Source of the DNA: Polyangiales bacterium
GTDB lineage: Bacteria > Myxococcota_A > Polyangia > Polyangiales > Polyangiaceae
Direction of reading: 5' to 3'
Assembly (NCBI GenBank): GCA_038230375.1
Contig: JBBRNJ010000005.1
Span: 32,001 to 96,000, forward strand
Length of the DNA: 64,000 nt
Made by a program: the position numbers and the translations under genes. Below are positions 43,362 through 50,168 of this stretch, piece after piece. How positions within the stretch are numbered: position 1 is the stretch's first letter; the number at the start of each line of letters is the position of its first letter. The notes beneath the pieces are model-generated. The model saw only the letters and a program-made list of their open reading frames with translations, was not told where the DNA came from and searched no databases.

Positions 43362-44996
43362 TCACGCGTAGATCGGCCGCGCGGGAAGCTCGAGGACGCC
43401 GTGGCTCGGGGCACTTACTTCACGGTGCCGCTCCTTCGTCTGGCCTTTGATCTTGAGCCCCACGCCCTGGACTTCGGCGTTGAGCGAGAGCCCACCGGAT
43501 GTCTCCACGGAGGAGTAGGCCTCGGCCTTTGCCTGCGCACCTGGACCGAACACACCCATCGCGCCCGGAAGGTCGGCCGCTGCGACCAAGGCCATGGCTC
43601 GAACCAGGTCTGCGTTGCTCCCGTTCCAGCCCTTCACTTCGAGGGTGCGGGTACTCACGAATTGCTCCGCGCCAGCGCCGCCACCGTTTGACCTCTGGGT
43701 GGCGACGCCAAGACCAAGCTGCACACCGGTCGCGCGTTCGCTCTTGAGCGTCACGGTTCGAGCGCCGCTCTTCAACTGTCCCTGAAGATTCATCAGTGAT
43801 GCGCCCGGGTCCGACAGGAGCCGTGCGGAGTCGACGTGCTCAGGCAAGGCGTAGACCATTGAGAACTTCACGCTCACGTCCTCCTGATGGTTCACGGCCA
43901 GCCCGTTCATCGGTAAGCCGGCAGGCTGCTCTCGGTTGCCTGATGCCCGGGCCAGCCCAGCTCCGCCGGTCCCCGAAACTCGTCCAGATGTCTCGAGCGC
44001 GATCTCCACGGTCGTCGCGCGCCCGCCTTCGAAGTGGATCGTCGACGAGACCTTTTCCGCTGGCAAGCCCTGAAGTGCCGCGCCCATGGCGGCCCTCGCA
44101 CCCTCGGCGCCTGACGCCTTGTTGATCTCCGCGGAGAGAACGCCCGAGACTGTGACGTCGCTGATGTGCGAGCGCAGGAACGCCGTGTCCGCCGCGTTCA
44201 TCACGCCGTGGTTGCGGAGCTGCTGCGCGCCTTCGAGCATCGGGTTGTATGCAGCCATGCCGTAACGCAGGACGCATTCGGTGAGCTTCTTCGCATCCGC
44301 GGCGGTGCTCACCTGGAATGTGATCTTGGCGCCGGCCGCGGCCTGGGCTTTGGCCTCCATGAATCCGCCCTTCTTGATTGCGGTCGCTCCCAGCTCGCCG
44401 CTTGCCTCGACCTTGAACGCTCCGTCCTCGCCGCGCGTCACCTTCACGCTGACTTGCTCTTCAGTTCCGCCTCTACCCACGCCGAGCTCGATGGAGCCGG
44501 TGATCTCGTAGGTGTCGTTCTTCTGGAGCGCGGCGACCTTGCTGGGTGGGGACTGCGCGAGCGTCATGAGATCGACCTGTCGTGATGCCTGTGCCATGTC
44601 CTGGACGACGCTCACGATGGGTGCCTGAGCCTTCACGCGAGCAAGGTCGAAGCCCAGCTCCACGCCATGGTGCGGCGCGTTGCATTCGCTCACGCGGCCG
44701 TCCAGGTCGAGCTGCTCCAGCAGACGCTCACCGGGTAGCTGACTGGTACGCCGGCCCAGAGCGCGGAGCGTGGCGCCGTCCGGCTCACCCGTGGTTGGAA
44801 GGCCTTCGCTACGCTGAAAAGAGGTGAGGCCCTCCTTCATGGTCCTTGGCGTATATCGATCGGTGCCAGCGAGCTCGTTGAGGAGCGCGAGGGCCTTCGG
44901 GGTGACGTCGTTCGAGCGGATGGTTCGCTCGCGCTCCTCCGCCTCCCGCGTCGTGGTGTCCGTATCCGAGCTGCGCGAACGATCGACGATGGTCAT
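43362..44996 (-). CDS. Peptidoglycan-binding-domain protein with large unknown C-terminal region (candidate secreted effector)
   Basis: TMKEGLTSFQRSEGLPTTGEPDGATLRAL matches PG_binding_1; no Sec signal; S/T-rich polar N-terminus. Confidence 0.7.
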   Translation of the reverse strand: MTIVDRSRSSDTDTTTREAEERERTIRSNDVTPKALALLNELAGTDRYTPRTMKEGLTSFQRSEGLPTTGEPDGATLRALGRRTSQLPGERLLEQLDLDGRVSECNAPHHGVELGFDLARVKAQAPIVSVVQDMAQASRQVDLMTLAQSPPSKVAALQKNDTYEITGSIELGVGRGGTEEQVSVKVTRGEDGAFKVEASGELGATAIKKGGFMEAKAQAAAGAKITFQVSTAADAKKLTECVLRYGMAAYNPMLEGAQQLRNHGVMNAADTAFLRSHISDVTVSGVLSAEINKASGAEGARAAMGAALQGLPAEKVSSTIHFEGGRATTVEIALETSGRVSGTGGAGLARASGNREQPAGLPMNGLAVNHQEDVSVKFSMVYALPEHVDSARLLSDPGASLMNLQGQLKSGARTVTLKSERATGVQLGLGVATQRSNGGGAGAEQFVSTRTLEVKGWNGSNADLVRAMALVAAADLPGAMGVFGPGAQAKAEAYSSVETSGGLSLNAEVQGVGLKIKGQTKERHREVSAPSHGVLELPARPIYA

Positions 44997-45002
44997 GCGC
45001 TC

Positions 45003-45029
45003 TCATCGGCCGCTCACGCGCGCAGTTGC
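45003..45029 (-). promoter_or_regulatory. Sigma28-like promoter GCAAC-N14-GCCGATGA
   Basis: The -10-like GCCGATGA ends 6 nt before ATG 44996; the same motif precedes the translocon operon. Confidence 0.6.
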
Positions 45030-45054
45030 GTGTCACCCGCGTTCTTGCGTCGAA

Positions 45055-45606
45055 TCAGCGAGGGTGCGGTGCCCACGGCACGTCGTCGACCTTCGCGGCG
45101 TGGTTCTCGTACCGCGCGAGGGTGAAGAGCAGATCGCTCAGGCGATTGAGGTAGATGACGAGCGCAGCGCGCGGCGTGGCGTCATCGATGGAAAGCAGTG
45201 CGCGCTCGGCGCGTCGACACACCGTGCGCGAGAGGTGAAGGCGTGCGGCGACCTCCGAGCCACCGGGCAAGATGAAGGTCTTCAGCGGAGGCAGCGGCTT
45301 CTCCGCGTCGTCGATGGCGCGCTCGAGGCGCTCGTAGTCGGCCTGGTCGAGGAGCTGCATCTTCAAGCTCTCCTCCTTGCCCGGCACGGTTGCGAGCTCC
45401 GCGCCGAGCGTGAAGAGATCCACCTGCACGCGCGCGAGCACCTCGTCCGTGAAGGACGAAGGCTTCGCCGTGCGCACGAGACCAAGCGTCGCGTTGAGCT
45501 CGTCGACGGTGCCGTAGGCCTCGACGCGAGGCACGTTCTTCTTCACGCGCCCCCCGCCAAAGAGCCCCGTATCGCCGCCGTCGCCGGTCTTCGTGTAGAT
45601 GCGCAT
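45055..45606 (-). CDS. pduO: Cob(I)alamin adenosyltransferase, PduO-type
   Basis: MRIYTKTGDGGDTGL, EAYGTVDELN, FILPGG, RTVCRRAER, YLNRLSDLLF. Confidence 0.93.
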   Translation of the reverse strand: MRIYTKTGDGGDTGLFGGGRVKKNVPRVEAYGTVDELNATLGLVRTAKPSSFTDEVLARVQVDLFTLGAELATVPGKEESLKMQLLDQADYERLERAIDDAEKPLPPLKTFILPGGSEVAARLHLSRTVCRRAERALLSIDDATPRAALVIYLNRLSDLLFTLARYENHAAKVDDVPWAPHPR

Positions 45607-45681
45607 GACGGCGGAGTATAGCCATCGATGTCCACGAAGAGGCTGTTTTCCAGGGGGATCGACGAAATCGTACGGTGCCAA

Positions 45682-45708
45682 GCAACCCACGCCCATGGCG
45701 GTCGATGG
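45682..45708 (+). promoter_or_regulatory. Sigma28-like promoter GCAAC-N14-GTCGATGG
   Basis: 40 nt upstream of ATG 45749; same spacing and flanks as the 45003-45029 copy. Confidence 0.55.
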
Positions 45709-45748
45709 GGGTGCATCGGCGCAAGTCGCCACCACCGTCGAGGACCAC

Positions 45749-45979
45749 ATGTCGAACGAGCACGAGGACCGGACTCATCGTCTGAAACAGCTAGACGCAG
45801 CCATCGATGCACAGGACGAAGCGATGAACGCGGTCCGGGCTCACGCCGCAGAGCTCAGCGCGCAAGGAGTCGAGCTGCCTGCTGGTCCGCTCCTCGCGGA
45901 GCTCGATGCCGTCATCGAGAAAGCCATCACGTCCGCACGCACGAACCCCACCACCGTCCACTACGGCCTCCGGGCCTGA
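45749..45979 (+). CDS. Small helical protein, first gene of the translocon-like operon
   Basis: GAGGA RBS, 76 aa, coiled-coil N-half, ends ...HYGLRA. Confidence 0.65.
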   Translation: MSNEHEDRTHRLKQLDAAIDAQDEAMNAVRAHAAELSAQGVELPAGPLLAELDAVIEKAITSARTNPTTVHYGLRA

Positions 45980-45991
45980 AAGAGAACCGTC

Positions 45992-46609
45992 ATGACCATC
46001 AACGCCTCCAGTCCTCTGCTCAACCATCCCCTCGCCAACACTGGCGCCGCCGGAGCCGGCAACAACGTCAACATCGACTGCATCAGCGTCGACAGCATCA
46101 TGGCGTACTGCGCTACCCGCATGAACGACCTCGACCTGATGCTGCGTTCGAAGATGCAGCAACAGACGAACCAGAACAACGTGTCGAAGCAGTGGTCCGA
46201 TCTCCAGGGCCTGATGCAACACTGCGCCGGAGCCGGCATCGTGAAGGGCGGAGATCAGTCGGGCAACAAGGCCGTCTCCGACCAGCTGCTCGCTCAGTAC
46301 AACGCGACCACCGATCCTGCGCTCCGGATCAAGCTCGGCGATGCCTTCACCAAGTTCACGGGCAAGAACATCGCGGATGGCCCGGTGGCCAATCCGGAGC
46401 CTAAAGACCCGGTGTCCGCGTCGGATTTTGCGGGCTTCATCGAGGAGATCAAGACGGATGCCGGCTCCGTCTCGCAGGGCTCGGACCTGGCGATGGTCGA
46501 GATCCAGAGCCTTGTCAGCCAGCGCCAGCAGGCGATGCAGCTCACCTCGCAGATGCTCCAGTCGGAGAGCGAGATCGCCAAGAACATCCTCGGCAACACG
46601 GGGCGCTGA
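45992..46609 (+). CDS. T3SS tip/filament-like protein (EspA/SseB/Bsp22-like)
   Basis: N-terminal helix RMNDLDLMLRSKMQQQ and C-terminal helix DLAMVEIQSLVSQRQQAMQLTSQML...KNILGN typical of the hydrophilic translocator/filament class. Confidence 0.65.
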   Translation: MTINASSPLLNHPLANTGAAGAGNNVNIDCISVDSIMAYCATRMNDLDLMLRSKMQQQTNQNNVSKQWSDLQGLMQHCAGAGIVKGGDQSGNKAVSDQLLAQYNATTDPALRIKLGDAFTKFTGKNIADGPVANPEPKDPVSASDFAGFIEEIKTDAGSVSQGSDLAMVEIQSLVSQRQQAMQLTSQMLQSESEIAKNILGNTGR

Positions 46610-46611
46610 AG

Positions 46612-46989
46612 ATGAACCCCGTCGACCACGCCCTCGCGATCGACGCTGTGTATGCGGCCGGTCGCTGGCTCCTCCAGAACGACCGGCCGCGTGAGGCGGT
46701 CGACATTTTTCGCACCATCATGCTTGCTGCGCCGACGGACGAGCGCGGCTGGCTCGGGCTGGCCGAGGCGCACGACACGCTCGGCGAGCATACGAAGGCG
46801 CTCGAGCTCTTGCGGCTCGCGCCCGACGCAACAGGTCCCCGCGCGCGCATCGCGCTCTGCATGGCGCGCGCGCTCCGCCATGCCGGCGAAGACGCGGCGG
46901 ACACCTACGAGCTCGCGGCGGACCTCGCGTTGGCCGAGAGCGCTGACGATCTCCTCAACCTAGTTCGATTCGAGAAGGCGCAGTCATGA
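46612..46989 (+). CDS. Class II T3SS translocator chaperone (SycD/LcrH/CesD-like TPR protein)
   Basis: AVYAAGRWLLQNDRPREAVDIFRTIMLAAPTDERGWLGLA; 125 aa; sits directly before the translocators. Confidence 0.7.
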   Translation: MNPVDHALAIDAVYAAGRWLLQNDRPREAVDIFRTIMLAAPTDERGWLGLAEAHDTLGEHTKALELLRLAPDATGPRARIALCMARALRHAGEDAADTYELAADLALAESADDLLNLVRFEKAQS

Positions 46990-48305
46990 GCCCCAGTATC
47001 CAGACCCAGGTGCCGCGCACCGCATCGCTGTCCCCGATCACGTCTGGCGCGACGGTCGCGCAGGCGGGCGCACCTCCCTCCGTGCTCCCCACGCCGTCCG
47101 CGTTGAACCTCCCCGACGCGTTGTCGGCGCTCCTTGCACTGCAGTCTGGTGTGTCGAGCGCACAGCAGGCGCAGGGCCAGGCCGATGCGAAGGTGAAGAG
47201 CGCGGCGCGCGACCTCGCAGAGACGACGCGCAAGTCGCACATCAAGCAGGCCATTGACGCCGCAAACGAGGCGAAAAAGCACGCCGATGACGGCGGCACA
47301 TTTGGCTTCATCACCGACCACATCGGTGTCGTTGGCCTCATCGGGCTGTGCACGGGCCAGTTCTATCTCGTCGCAGAAGACATGGCCGCGCACGCCGCGC
47401 AGAAGAACAATCAGTCGACCAGCGCGCTTGGCGTCGGCGCTGCGCTCGTCGGTGGCCCGCTCGGTGCGGGCCTCGAGCTGGGCATCGAGAAGGGACTCCC
47501 CGAGGACTGGACGAAGCCCATGGAGGAGCTGCCGAGCGTGAAGGACGACGACGTACGTGTCGCGAACAAGGTCGCGCTCACCATCGTGATGGCAGAGGCA
47601 ATGGCAGCAGCCACGGTGGCCTCCGGCGGTGCTGCCGCGCCCACGTACATCGCGCTGGCAGGCATCATGGTCTCCACAGCGACCGAGGTCGGCGACGAGA
47701 CCGGTCTGACGAAGAAGGTGTTCAAGAGCGACGCTGCGACCGCCTCGATGGTCGGCCATCTCACTGGAGCAGCGCTTGGCGCGGCCGCCGGCTTTGCGTC
47801 GGCGTCGAGCGCGTGGAGCTACGTATCGGCGAGCGGTCAGGCCCTCGCTGTCACTGCGCAGGCAAGCCAGCAGACGGGTCTGACGAAGGAACTGGTCGGC
47901 GAGGACGCAGACAAGGTGACGCTCGGTCTCACCATCGCTGGAACGGCTGCCGTTGCAGTGGGTAGCGCCGGTGGCATTCTCTCGGGCCCGGGAGACAAGA
48001 AGCCGAAGGTCGATCGGATGGTCGAGCACGGCAAGAGCGCGAAGCAGATCCTCGACGGCGGAGACCAGGTCTACCGCGGCGTCAACGCGATCGAGCGCGC
48101 GCACTTCGAGCACGTCGCTGGCGTCGAGAACATCGAAGCCAAGCGCCAGAAGCAGCTGATGCAGCGCATCGAGATGGCGATTGACGGCATCATCGACGAC
48201 CTCAAGGAGGCGCAGAAATCACAGAAGCGCGCGACCGAGACCATCCAGGGCGCGATCCAGACCGCCCAGCAGACCACCACCATCGCCATCGGAATGAAAG
48301 GTTGA
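46986..48305 (+). CDS. Major hydrophobic translocator-like protein (SctE: YopB/SseC class)
   Basis: Polar N-terminus, coiled coil, Gly/Ala-rich hydrophobic core (AAATVASGGAAAP...LAGIMV), C-terminal coiled coil; no Sec signal. Confidence 0.7.
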   Translation: MSPSIQTQVPRTASLSPITSGATVAQAGAPPSVLPTPSALNLPDALSALLALQSGVSSAQQAQGQADAKVKSAARDLAETTRKSHIKQAIDAANEAKKHADDGGTFGFITDHIGVVGLIGLCTGQFYLVAEDMAAHAAQKNNQSTSALGVGAALVGGPLGAGLELGIEKGLPEDWTKPMEELPSVKDDDVRVANKVALTIVMAEAMAAATVASGGAAAPTYIALAGIMVSTATEVGDETGLTKKVFKSDAATASMVGHLTGAALGAAAGFASASSAWSYVSASGQALAVTAQASQQTGLTKELVGEDADKVTLGLTIAGTAAVAVGSAGGILSGPGDKKPKVDRMVEHGKSAKQILDGGDQVYRGVNAIERAHFEHVAGVENIEAKRQKQLMQRIEMAIDGIIDDLKEAQKSQKRATETIQGAIQTAQQTTTIAIGMKG

Positions 48306-48312
48306 GACCATC

Positions 48313-49014
48313 ATGAACTCGTTCGCCATCCAGGCCCGCGCTGTTTCCACCACCAGCCCCGTCGACAAAGCAACGAGCGTTGGCGGCGCCGCTCCCGCAC
48401 CGCCGGCATCCGCGCTGCCCACGCCGGAGTTCTCGGGCGACGTTGCGACGGCGCTCGCGCAGCTGATGCTGAAGAGCGAATTCGTTCGCAAGAACCTCGC
48501 GCACGAGGAGCGCAAGGTCGCCGAGGCGGGAATGAAGTCTGCGCAGGAAGCGCAGATCAAGGAGCTCACTACAGAGGCGGACAAGAAGCTCGACGCCGCG
48601 ACGGAAGCAGCCGTCGGTACGATCGGCAATGGCGTTCTATGCGCCAGCACTGCGGCCATGGACATCGCAACGACGAACGGGCCGAACGAACCGCGAAAGG
48701 ACGTCTCGCTGAACGGCGCAAAGATGGACCGACGGGCGGTCTCGCTGGCGTCTGACCGCGACTTTGGAAAGGGAGCTGGAGGCGTCTTCGAAGGGTCCAT
48801 GAAGCTCGACGCCGCCGCAAAGGACCACGAGGCGAGCAAGGCAAACATCCGCGCGAAGGCCGATGAAAACCTCGCCAGCGCGTGGAAAAACAGCATCGAC
48901 GACGCGAAGGACGCGCGACAGGACGCGCAGGAACGCATCGGCCGCGTCCACGATTGGCTGAAGTCACTGGAAGAGACGACGGCGCAGACGACGATGAGCG
49001 CCATCAAGGCGTGA
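48313..49014 (+). CDS. Minor translocator-like protein (SctB: YopD/SseD class)
   Basis: 233 aa, helical, one weakly hydrophobic segment, amphipathic C-terminal helix ending TTMSAIKA; follows the SctE-like gene. Confidence 0.6.
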   Translation: MNSFAIQARAVSTTSPVDKATSVGGAAPAPPASALPTPEFSGDVATALAQLMLKSEFVRKNLAHEERKVAEAGMKSAQEAQIKELTTEADKKLDAATEAAVGTIGNGVLCASTAAMDIATTNGPNEPRKDVSLNGAKMDRRAVSLASDRDFGKGAGGVFEGSMKLDAAAKDHEASKANIRAKADENLASAWKNSIDDAKDARQDAQERIGRVHDWLKSLEETTAQTTMSAIKA

Positions 49015-49043: not shown

Positions 49044-50168
49044 CTAGGCCTGGAACATCTTCGCGACTTGCTCGTTCAGCGCGACTTCCGTCACGCCCTT
49101 TGCTGCCGCGAGCTCCTTCATGAGCAGGCTCTTTGCTTGATCGAGGAGGCGCCGCTCACCGAAGGACAGGTCCTTGTCGAACTTGAGCCGGTACATGTCG
49201 CGAAGCACCTTCGCCACTTCGTGCGGGGAGCCGCTCTTGATCATCTCCGTGTAGGCACGGAAGCGACGGCTCCACGGCTGCAGGTCAACGGCGACCTCGC
49301 GCGCGCGCATGGTGTCGAGCACGCCATCGGCCTCTTTCGGGCTCATGACGCTGCGCAGACCAGACGGCGATGACACGGGGACCATCACGCGCATGCCGTT
49401 GTCCAGGATGCGAAGGACGTAGAACTCGCCCTTCATGCCGCCGAGCTCGCGCTCCTCAACGGCGATGACCTCGCCGAGGCCATGCTTCGGGTGCACTGCC
49501 TTGTCGCCCATCTTGAGCTTCAGCGGCTTCGTCTGCACCGGCATGATCGGCGCGGTGACTGCGAACGGCGAGAGCCGCGGCGGACGGTTCGGCTGCGGAG
49601 GCGGAGCGGAGTTCGGCTTGCCGTTCGGGCCGGTCGCATTGTTCGCACGCGCGACCTGGATGGGTGCCGGAGGCGGCATCATCGAAGCGGGCCGCGGACC
49701 GACCATCGTCGAGGGCCCGGGTCGGGAGATCGCGGACGGAGGGGGTGACTTCACCAGCGTGGGCCCGGTGGAGATCACGGGCTGGTGCATCTTGCGCGGC
49801 GGCGGCGGCTTCTCCGCCTTCTTCTTGCCCTTCGGCTTGGGCACGAGGACGGGGGAGCTATGCGTGGCGGTCGACTTCACGCCCGCGGACTTTGCGGCAG
49901 CCGGCAGCTCGACCGCCTTGGCGGTGGCCGACTTGGCGGCTGCGGCGGCCTTGGATTCGACGGGCTTCGGCGTGGGTTTGGCAGGCTTGGGGGACTGTTT
50001 CACTTCTGGTTTCGAACCTTTGGCCTTGTTATTCGAGATGGCCCCCGCCTTCGATTCACTCTTCGCGCCCGATTTCGTCGCCTTGGGGTCGACCTTCGCC
50101 GTCTTGGACCCGCTCTTGGAGGCGACCGTCTTGCTCTTGTCGCCCTTTTGCACGGCCTTGCCCTTCAC
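49044..50168 (-). CDS. cdnL: CarD/CdnL family transcription factor with long basic N-terminal extension (probably begins at 50295 across a frameshift)
   Basis: GDKAVHPKHGLG, VMVPV, PWSRRFRAY, VLRDMYRL...KDLSFGERRLL; about 210 aa K/A/P/S-rich N-terminal tail. Confidence 0.85.
   Translation of the reverse strand: MKGKAVQKGDKSKTVASKSGSKTAKVDPKATKSGAKSESKAGAISNNKAKGSKPEVKQSPKPAKPTPKPVESKAAAAAKSATAKAVELPAAAKSAGVKSTATHSSPVLVPKPKGKKKAEKPPPPRKMHQPVISTGPTLVKSPPPSAISRPGPSTMVGPRPASMMPPPAPIQVARANNATGPNGKPNSAPPPQPNRPPRLSPFAVTAPIMPVQTKPLKLKMGDKAVHPKHGLGEVIAVEERELGGMKGEFYVLRILDNGMRVMVPVSSPSGLRSVMSPKEADGVLDTMRAREVAVDLQPWSRRFRAYTEMIKSGSPHEVAKVLRDMYRLKFDKDLSFGERRLLDQAKSLLMKELAAAKGVTEVALNEQVAKMFQA

Follow-up and report, generated by a model that had tools for sequence, protein, structure and literature searches.

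What do two nearly identical promoter-like motifs do on either side of an ordinary metabolic gene? The question is raised by a 64,000-nucleotide stretch (the window) of a Polyangiaceae-like genome of 9.0 Mb and 67% GC, designated G000, in which the first-pass annotation had described two GCAAC-N14-GYCGATG sites flanking pduO; both the positions and the letters were confirmed. On the minus strand, 45029-45004 reads GCAAC-TGCGCGCGTGAGCG-GCCGATG, with the ATG of a 544-aa gene at 44996, 7 nt further on, and on the plus strand, 45682-45707 reads GCAAC-CCACGCCCATGGCG-GTCGATG. As predicted promoters of a sigma factor that we call sigma-T3, the first (45003..45029, minus strand) has its -35 GCAAC at 45029-45025, a 14-nt spacer and the -10 GCCGATGA at 45010-45003, with a weight-matrix score of 25.0; the second (45682..45708, plus strand), that of a translocon operon, has its -35 GCAAC at 45682-45686 and the -10 GTCGATGG at 45701-45708, scores 28.2, and stands 41 nt from the first ATG. 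The minus-strand transcript is probably leaderless, judging by the ATG 7 nt past GATG. These were the only 2 motif matches in the window, and 100 shuffles of it gave a mean of 0.11 matches, none of them having 2. Between the promoters, pduO itself (45055..45606, minus strand), encoding a cobalamin adenosyltransferase (Cob_adeno_trans, E 6.6e-59), is a bystander.

The scan of the whole genome that had been proposed for this pattern gave a sharp peak at a single spacer length, with 29 matches when the spacer is 14 nt and 2-10 for each of the lengths 10-13 and 15-18. A weight matrix, seeded blind to position and then used to score sites throughout G000, placed 19 sites at 25.0-33.5, separated by a 10-bit gap from the next best at 15.3. 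The 19-site motif is GCAAC-N14-G(C/T)CGATGG (consensus GCAACC-N11-CGGCCGATGGG), and its -35 is GCAAC at 19/19 sites, not the TAAAG/TCAAG of the sigma28 type. All 19 lie outside called genes, although intergenic DNA makes up only 8% of the genome by the gene calls made in this analysis. A start codon follows GATG by 6-8 nt at 14/19 sites in G000 and at 17/23 in the same-genus genome G001, the chance expectation for an ATG at offsets 7-8 being 2.4%; this spacing fits leaderless transcripts, and most of the 19 sites look leaderless. The motif could alternatively be read as a site bound by an activator, or as part of translation initiation, as a GGGAG-like stretch often stands directly ahead of the ATG; however, so strict a spacing between two elements resembles that of sigma promoters, and the same sequence is seen at five sites in G000 that stand 29-58 nt before the next called ATG, so that we regard this reading as extremely unlikely. 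The 14-nt spacing between the 5-mer -35 and the -10 is the same as in the P. aeruginosa fliC promoter. The -10 is GCCGATGG in G000 and GCCGATAA(G) in G028, G029, G037 and G170; in several families it is exactly GCCGATAA, the sigma28 -10 consensus in PMC12784957. Overall, it is likely that GCAAC-N14-G(C/T)CGATGG serves as promoter for sigma-T3, a FliA/WhiG-family paralog dedicated to this motif.

The strict pattern had no match in 23 same-family genomes of other genera, because both the -10 and the spacer vary there, and a looser pattern, G(C/A)AAC-N14/15-xxCGA, was then used across relatives with its own controls. In an order-wide tally the motif was found in 93 of 101 genomes, with 428 matches against about 54 for the reversed sequence, which is a weak control; G227 is among the genomes tallied, and none of our claims draws on this tally. 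It is to be noted that the compared genomes are kin and not independent samples. A loose scan of the Labilithrix luteola genome gave 34 matches, of which most of the 30 inspected fall within genes, and loose scans therefore need gene context. Separately, GCAAC-N18-xxCGA(T/C) has 16 matches within 60 nt of starts in G000, versus 2-7 at most other spacers, and is possibly a separate, ECF-type regulon.

Five plus-strand genes follow the second promoter in the window. The first, of 76 aa (45749..45979), has no family match and sits in the lcrG position of lcrGVH-yopBD; a small gene holds this first position in 9/9 related loci. It is followed by a 205-aa protein called tip-like by its position (45992..46609; a weak SseC match at E 0.02 only), with homologs in 10 of 41 genomes, by a SycD/LcrH-like TPR translocator chaperone (46612..46989; TIGR02552, E 1.6e-8, below the curated cut-off), by a 439-aa major translocator-like protein (46986..48305) with three hydrophobic segments by hydropathy and no family match, and by a 233-aa minor translocator-like protein (48313..49014; NF052420 SseD, E 2e-5, below cut-off). 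A small gene, a tip protein, a TPR chaperone and two translocators make up the layout of lcrGVH-yopBD, the tip and translocator assignments being drawn from weak matches together with gene order. Nine related loci show this order over the length that each of them covers, and the motif is found upstream of the operon in 8/9 relatives (control 1.5%). The earlier proposal of a shared promoter and a translocon operon is supported.

The minus-strand promoter precedes a 544-aa protein (43362..44996, minus strand) that is a candidate secreted T3SS effector. It has no hydrophobic N-terminus by hydropathy, has a peptidoglycan-binding domain at 50-80 (PG_binding_1, E 3.6e-5), and has 10 matches among 1.84 billion representatives. 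Its single-sequence fold was unusable (pLDDT 38), and Foldseek returned generic barrels only; from a 9-row alignment, the C-terminal part was modelled as a beta-barrel (mean pLDDT 56), the best match of the model being an autotransporter barrel (Z 15.9, rmsd 3.8, 216 residues aligned).

The first-pass annotation had gone further, proposing that the divergent pair links the operon to this candidate effector gene. The arrangement is not conserved in G001, the nearest relative. Both promoters are present there, including the site upstream of the 544-aa ortholog, and pduO is 98% identical, without divergent flanks; the translocon cassette lies in the opposite orientation (tandem) and has no DNA similarity to that of the window, and its flanks are 90% identical. 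Because the cassette has been replaced and inverted in so close a relative, the divergent layout across pduO is incidental, and a divergent-promoter logic was rejected. As an observation on the cassette itself, the segment 45622-49042 has been exchanged and inverted relative to G001, the tip protein being 28% identical amid flanks of 90% DNA identity, which suggests exchange under diversifying selection. The cassette is flanked by a gene of the CarD family (49044-50168, minus strand) whose product is extended at its N-terminus by a long stretch rich in Lys and Pro.

Which sigma factor reads the motif? G000 has three FliA-like genes, namely flagellar FliA on contig C21, sigma-T3 on C18 (C18:22318-23013), and a further paralog on C55. 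For sigma-T3, the best NCBIfam match is TIGR02479 (E 4e-26; 92 bits, below the cut-off of 189.6), and the best PDB matches, at E 5e-33 and 3e-31, are WhiG-type/FliA sigmas. In a tree that also held 9 FliA and 11 C55-type rows, both of which are separate, the sigma-T3 clade had support of 100/98. It was found in 39 of 41 genomes; of note, G007 (98% complete) has no sigma-T3 match and yet has a degenerate motif match at comF, and G025 (70% complete) has the motif and no sigma-T3 match. The -35 helix carries an invariant SKSW..R, as opposed to VTESR..Q in flagellar FliA. Within this helix, the invariant R215 aligns with P. aeruginosa Q228, and R89 (81/85 alignment rows) aligns with P. aeruginosa R97. 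In the accessible text on the P. aeruginosa protein, Q228 is a -35 specificity determinant, and R97 reads the extended -10 (PMC12784957). The changed helix would thus allow sigma-T3 to read GCAAC alongside a flagellar FliA that reads T(C/A)AAG within one cell. The sigma28 geometry (5-mer, 14 nt, GCCGAT) is retained, and sigma-T3 keeps the residue that reads the extended -10.

Gene neighborhood points to the same factor. One of the 19 G000 sites lies just past the sigma-T3 stop codon on C18, 7 nt before a 106-aa rod-like gene. Across relatives, the motif occurs within 150 nt past the sigma stop in 15/17 loci with an adjacent rod-like gene versus 1/22 without (control 1.4%), and in further loci (79 of 80, one being too short; some duplicate earlier genomes) in 30/37 with the rod-like gene versus 1/42 without. 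In G100, a genome of another class, the sigma gene sits before rod-like and sctJ genes. The sigma-T3 gene of G000 has no motif upstream of itself; in L344 (G114 C106), from a genome of another class, the sigma-T3-like gene is preceded by GCAAC-N14/15 motifs, which suggests autoregulation there.

The most obvious rival reader is flagellar FliA itself, which scores over its family cut-off at C21:63180 and whose promoters have the same spacer and GCCG core. Nevertheless, the flagellin, flgM and other flagellar-cluster promoters carry T(C/A)AAG-N14-(G/C)CCGT; for TCAAG-N14-GCCGTT, 25 sites were counted, against 2-10 when the spacer was changed, and the GCAAC matrix scores every one of the 25 below -5. 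Furthermore, the motif is kept in four genomes (G022, G028, G030, G034; 95-97% complete) that have neither flagellin nor a FliA over the cut-off. With a TCAAG regulon of its own, and the motif present where flagellin and FliA are missing, FliA was rejected as the reader, and the chance that it fills this role is very small. For reference, the flagellar cluster of G000 occupies C21:30100-64700 (partly L009, L010) and C3 (L014-L016), with four flagellins and the regulon of ~25 TCAAG-N14-GCCGTT sites. The idea of a FliA/WhiG-like sigma as reader, put forward in the first-pass annotation, therefore holds for a sigma28-family paralog and not for flagellar FliA, which has its own motif; a sigma28-family factor, the lack of which had been named as counter-evidence, is present, with TIGR02479 as the best family of sigma-T3 and FliA also in the genome.

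A second rival is that an ECF sigma or the C55 paralog reads the motif, the synteny of sigma-T3 being coincidental. The AAC of the -35 is ECF-like, an ECF sigma gene adjoins the 544-aa gene, and the C55 paralog is without an assigned regulon. Against this, there is no site upstream of that ECF gene, the -10 matches sigma28, and a partner gene under the motif, described below, models onto sigma-T3. The C55 paralog occurs in only 17/41 genomes and is absent from several motif-bearing ones; G028, G029 and G030 have none at E 1e-18. It was disfavoured as the reader for its absence from motif-bearing genomes, and we hold this rival as a whole to be very improbable. The C55 paralog (L036:1924-2541; G000 C55:56921-57541) is missing a portion of region 3 and groups in a clade of its own; its gene is two genes away from pilMNOPQ.

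With sigma-T3 as the preferred reader, we turn to what it may control. G000 has a second export set, sctV, J, L, N, Q, R, S, T and U, apart from the flagellar copies and spread over nine contigs. Here SctV, J and L score best against T3SS models; for the SctQ candidate, which is truncated where its contig ends, the top-scoring model is FliN. The core genes are almost completely dispersed, standing singly or in pairs between housekeeping genes (C17, C119, C9, C22, C43, C93, C11, C3, C97). A motif-based scan for SctC in the 94%-complete assembly found four secretin-like genes, namely two GspD, one PilQ and a fourth in a Tad-like locus, and no dedicated SctC among them. The expectation of a fliA-like sigma near the sct genes was not borne out, as the sct genes are scattered and sigma-T3 stands before a single rod-like gene; in the larger T3SS cluster of M. 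xanthus, a FliA-like gene is presumably annotated. The export-apparatus genes of G000 have no motif upstream. The sites head, instead, the 106-aa rod-like gene, which resembles the needle/rod family (feature score 0.97; PF09392 on 36% of its cluster), a needle-like operon (a weak look-alike) and a ruler-like gene (TIGR02514, E 0.002), along with the translocon operon and orphan genes. In this respect, the prediction that the motif would locate scattered T3SS and orphan genes is supported.

In three cases, a site heads an orphan gene followed by a signal-peptide gene (L022:1070-2634, L023:1179-2848, L030:611-2484). The pairs on C20 and C47 are paralogous (E 1e-76 and 1e-40), with two more copies of the second gene elsewhere, and all three look like antibacterial effector/immunity pairs. 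Other sites head several lipoproteins, a response regulator, an FHA-sigma54 activator, comF, and a gene before dprA; lipoproteins and regulators together make up roughly half of the targets in G000, and the FHA-sigma54 activator and a TPR lipoprotein are targeted again in other families. The earlier notion of a regulon of late substrates is accordingly too narrow for a set that takes in rod-, needle- and ruler-like genes, lipoproteins, regulators, comF and dprA. In some genomes the motif also stands before genes that by sequence appearance are mobile-element nucleases or transposases (L063, L064, L400, L404, L409), and in G195 one identical copy occurs 7 times among 12 matches; mobile elements may tap the sigma-T3 regulon.

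One target may bear directly on the control of sigma-T3. After the needle-like gene lies the gene (C32:36817) for a 139-aa small orphan protein, the partner, with a low-complexity N-terminus and a conserved C-terminal domain. It has no Pfam family (no FlgM match for 70 members) and no PDB match, and the FlgM of G000 is missed by a profile of the partner family. The gene was found in 30 of 41 genomes, and the motif lies within 900 nt upstream in 26/30 loci, as compared to 5 and 1 of 30 for wrong spacers. The modelled complex with sigma-T3 had an ipSAE of 0.89 versus 0.00 for the best control, a mark reached by 116/157 solved and 2/215 mismatched pairs, which is a rough guide for the alignments used; its runs agreed in at least 97% of contacts, with a partner pLDDT of at least 75, and the modelled interface falls on conserved sigma-T3 residues 117-143. 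The model supports binding, and the partner, a candidate FlgM-like anti-sigma, probably binds sigma-T3. That it inhibits sigma-T3 and is exported via the T3SS is plausible, and is proposed because of the analogy to FlgM.

The motif is also a regular companion of two DNA-processing genes, which were identified by TIGR00201 (comF) and TIGR00732 (dprA), both under cut-off. A comF match was obtained in 38 genomes, and of the 30 loci returned, 23 have the motif upstream; for dprA, matched in 39 genomes, it lies within 100 nt upstream in 21 of the 30 returned. The wrong-spacer controls gave 0, 0, 1 and 0 of 30. In G000, G001 and G018, it is about 900 nt upstream of dprA. Further Polyangiales comF loci have it in 6/7, plus G029, and those of other Myxococcota in only 2/18. 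By sequence, comF, dprA and the partner gene are among the most conserved motif targets. The regulon does not extend to competence in full; the motif was found at just 2/30 comEC loci (starts estimated from partial alignments) and in none of the 130-nt upstream regions of comEA and comM in G000, and a full competence regulon was rejected.

These findings bring up a different reading of the regulon, in which sigma-T3 is primarily a DNA-uptake or stress-state sigma that recruited the T3SS genes later and can do without them, with no export of the partner. Six genomes with sigma-T3 give no SctV match, and sigma-T3 is therefore not T3SS-specific; all six keep the motif at comF or dprA. In 13/30 partner loci, moreover, no needle-like gene was found ahead, and in most of these the motif lies close to, and directly ahead of, the partner. 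On the other hand, comEC is outside the regulon, and the G100 synteny, together with the rarity of the comF motif outside Polyangiales, suggests that sigma-T3 was tied to the T3SS before it was tied to comF. We thus consider the DNA-uptake reading unlikely, although it is the most probable of the rivals.

Our preferred, T3SS-centred model runs as follows. Sigma-T3 would turn on the secreted parts of the T3SS, i.e., the rod-, needle- and ruler-like genes, the tip/translocon operon and variable orphan genes, the last including effector/immunity-like pairs as candidate effectors. It would also turn on comF, dprA, the FHA-sigma54 activator, lipoproteins and its own partner (C32:36817), and export of the partner through the T3SS would act as an assembly checkpoint. 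Such an exported anti-sigma checkpoint is plausible by analogy, and so is a reading in which neighbours are killed and their DNA is taken up. The full scenario is offered tentatively, as a possibility: that Polyangiales use a duplicated FliA with a T3SS-exported anti-sigma to gate an antibacterial needle/translocon T3SS, that comF and dprA are licensed by this switch as well, whereby DNA released from attacked neighbours is protected and recombined, and that rapidly swapped translocon and effector cassettes are part of the cargo. If true, it would be a living regulatory trace of the flagellum-to-injectisome transition in Polyangiales. The regulon itself, being readable from sequence, would be useful in a large group of soil and sludge predators, most of them uncultured, for locating T3SS parts that lie scattered and orphan substrates that escape homology searches. 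It suggests that an early-branching injectisome lineage, described as having neither needle nor translocon, took over the sigma/anti-sigma logic of the flagellum, and it links the T3SS to natural-transformation genes, a coupling known for the Vibrio T6SS. The cultured L. luteola DSM 27648 carries sigma-T3 and has the motif before rod-like, needle-like, comF and dprA-operon genes, and each step is therefore testable.

How does this system compare with known ones? It resembles FliA/FlgM in its promoter geometry, GCCGAT -10, extended -10 arginine, secreted type III substrates and a partner gene within the regulon. In contrast to FliA, sigma-T3 reads a GCAAC -35, has the SKSW..R helix, and belongs to a separate clade that coexists with FliA; its targets are injectisome-type and DNA-processing genes, and its partner is not a FlgM homolog. 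In Bordetella, the sigma factor BtrS is of the ECF type. As far as its accessible literature goes, BtrS, with the secreted anti-sigma BtrA/BspR, is likewise dedicated to an injectisome; unlike BtrS, sigma-T3 is FliA-derived, the export-gate genes are outside its regulon, and secretion of its partner is proposed by analogy. The streptococcal ComX regulon places comF and dprA under an alternative regulator; the sigma-T3 motif is similarly found at comF and dprA and, unlike in the ComX case, not at comEC/comEA. The myxobacterial non-flagellar T3SS, according to the accessible portion of PMC3459982, has no dedicated secretin, is clustered in Cystobacterineae, and has no detectable needle, tip or translocon; in what could be accessed of PMC10849154, too, it is described as being without needle and translocon, and the available part of PMC11821767 places conserved T3SS homolog sets mainly in Myxococcaceae bins. 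The present system shares with that of PMC3459982, as there described, its non-flagellar nature, and may share the absence of a dedicated secretin, none having been identified among the four secretin-like genes of the 94%-complete assembly; it differs in having its core spread over nine contigs and in the presence of needle-, tip- and translocon-like genes. In Vibrio cholerae, TfoX/QstR couples competence and T6SS (accessible text of PMC6783263 and PMC6237807), and the likeness is in a contact-dependent weapon co-regulated with transformation genes; here, unlike there, the weapon is a T3SS, the regulator is a sigma28 paralog, comEC, comEA and comM are without the motif, and a coupling of killing with transformation is a prediction. 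A literature search, partial for subscription papers, returned no description of sigma-T3, its motif or its regulon, and sigma-T3 looks like a relative of flagellar FliA, in Polyangiales, that has not been described before.
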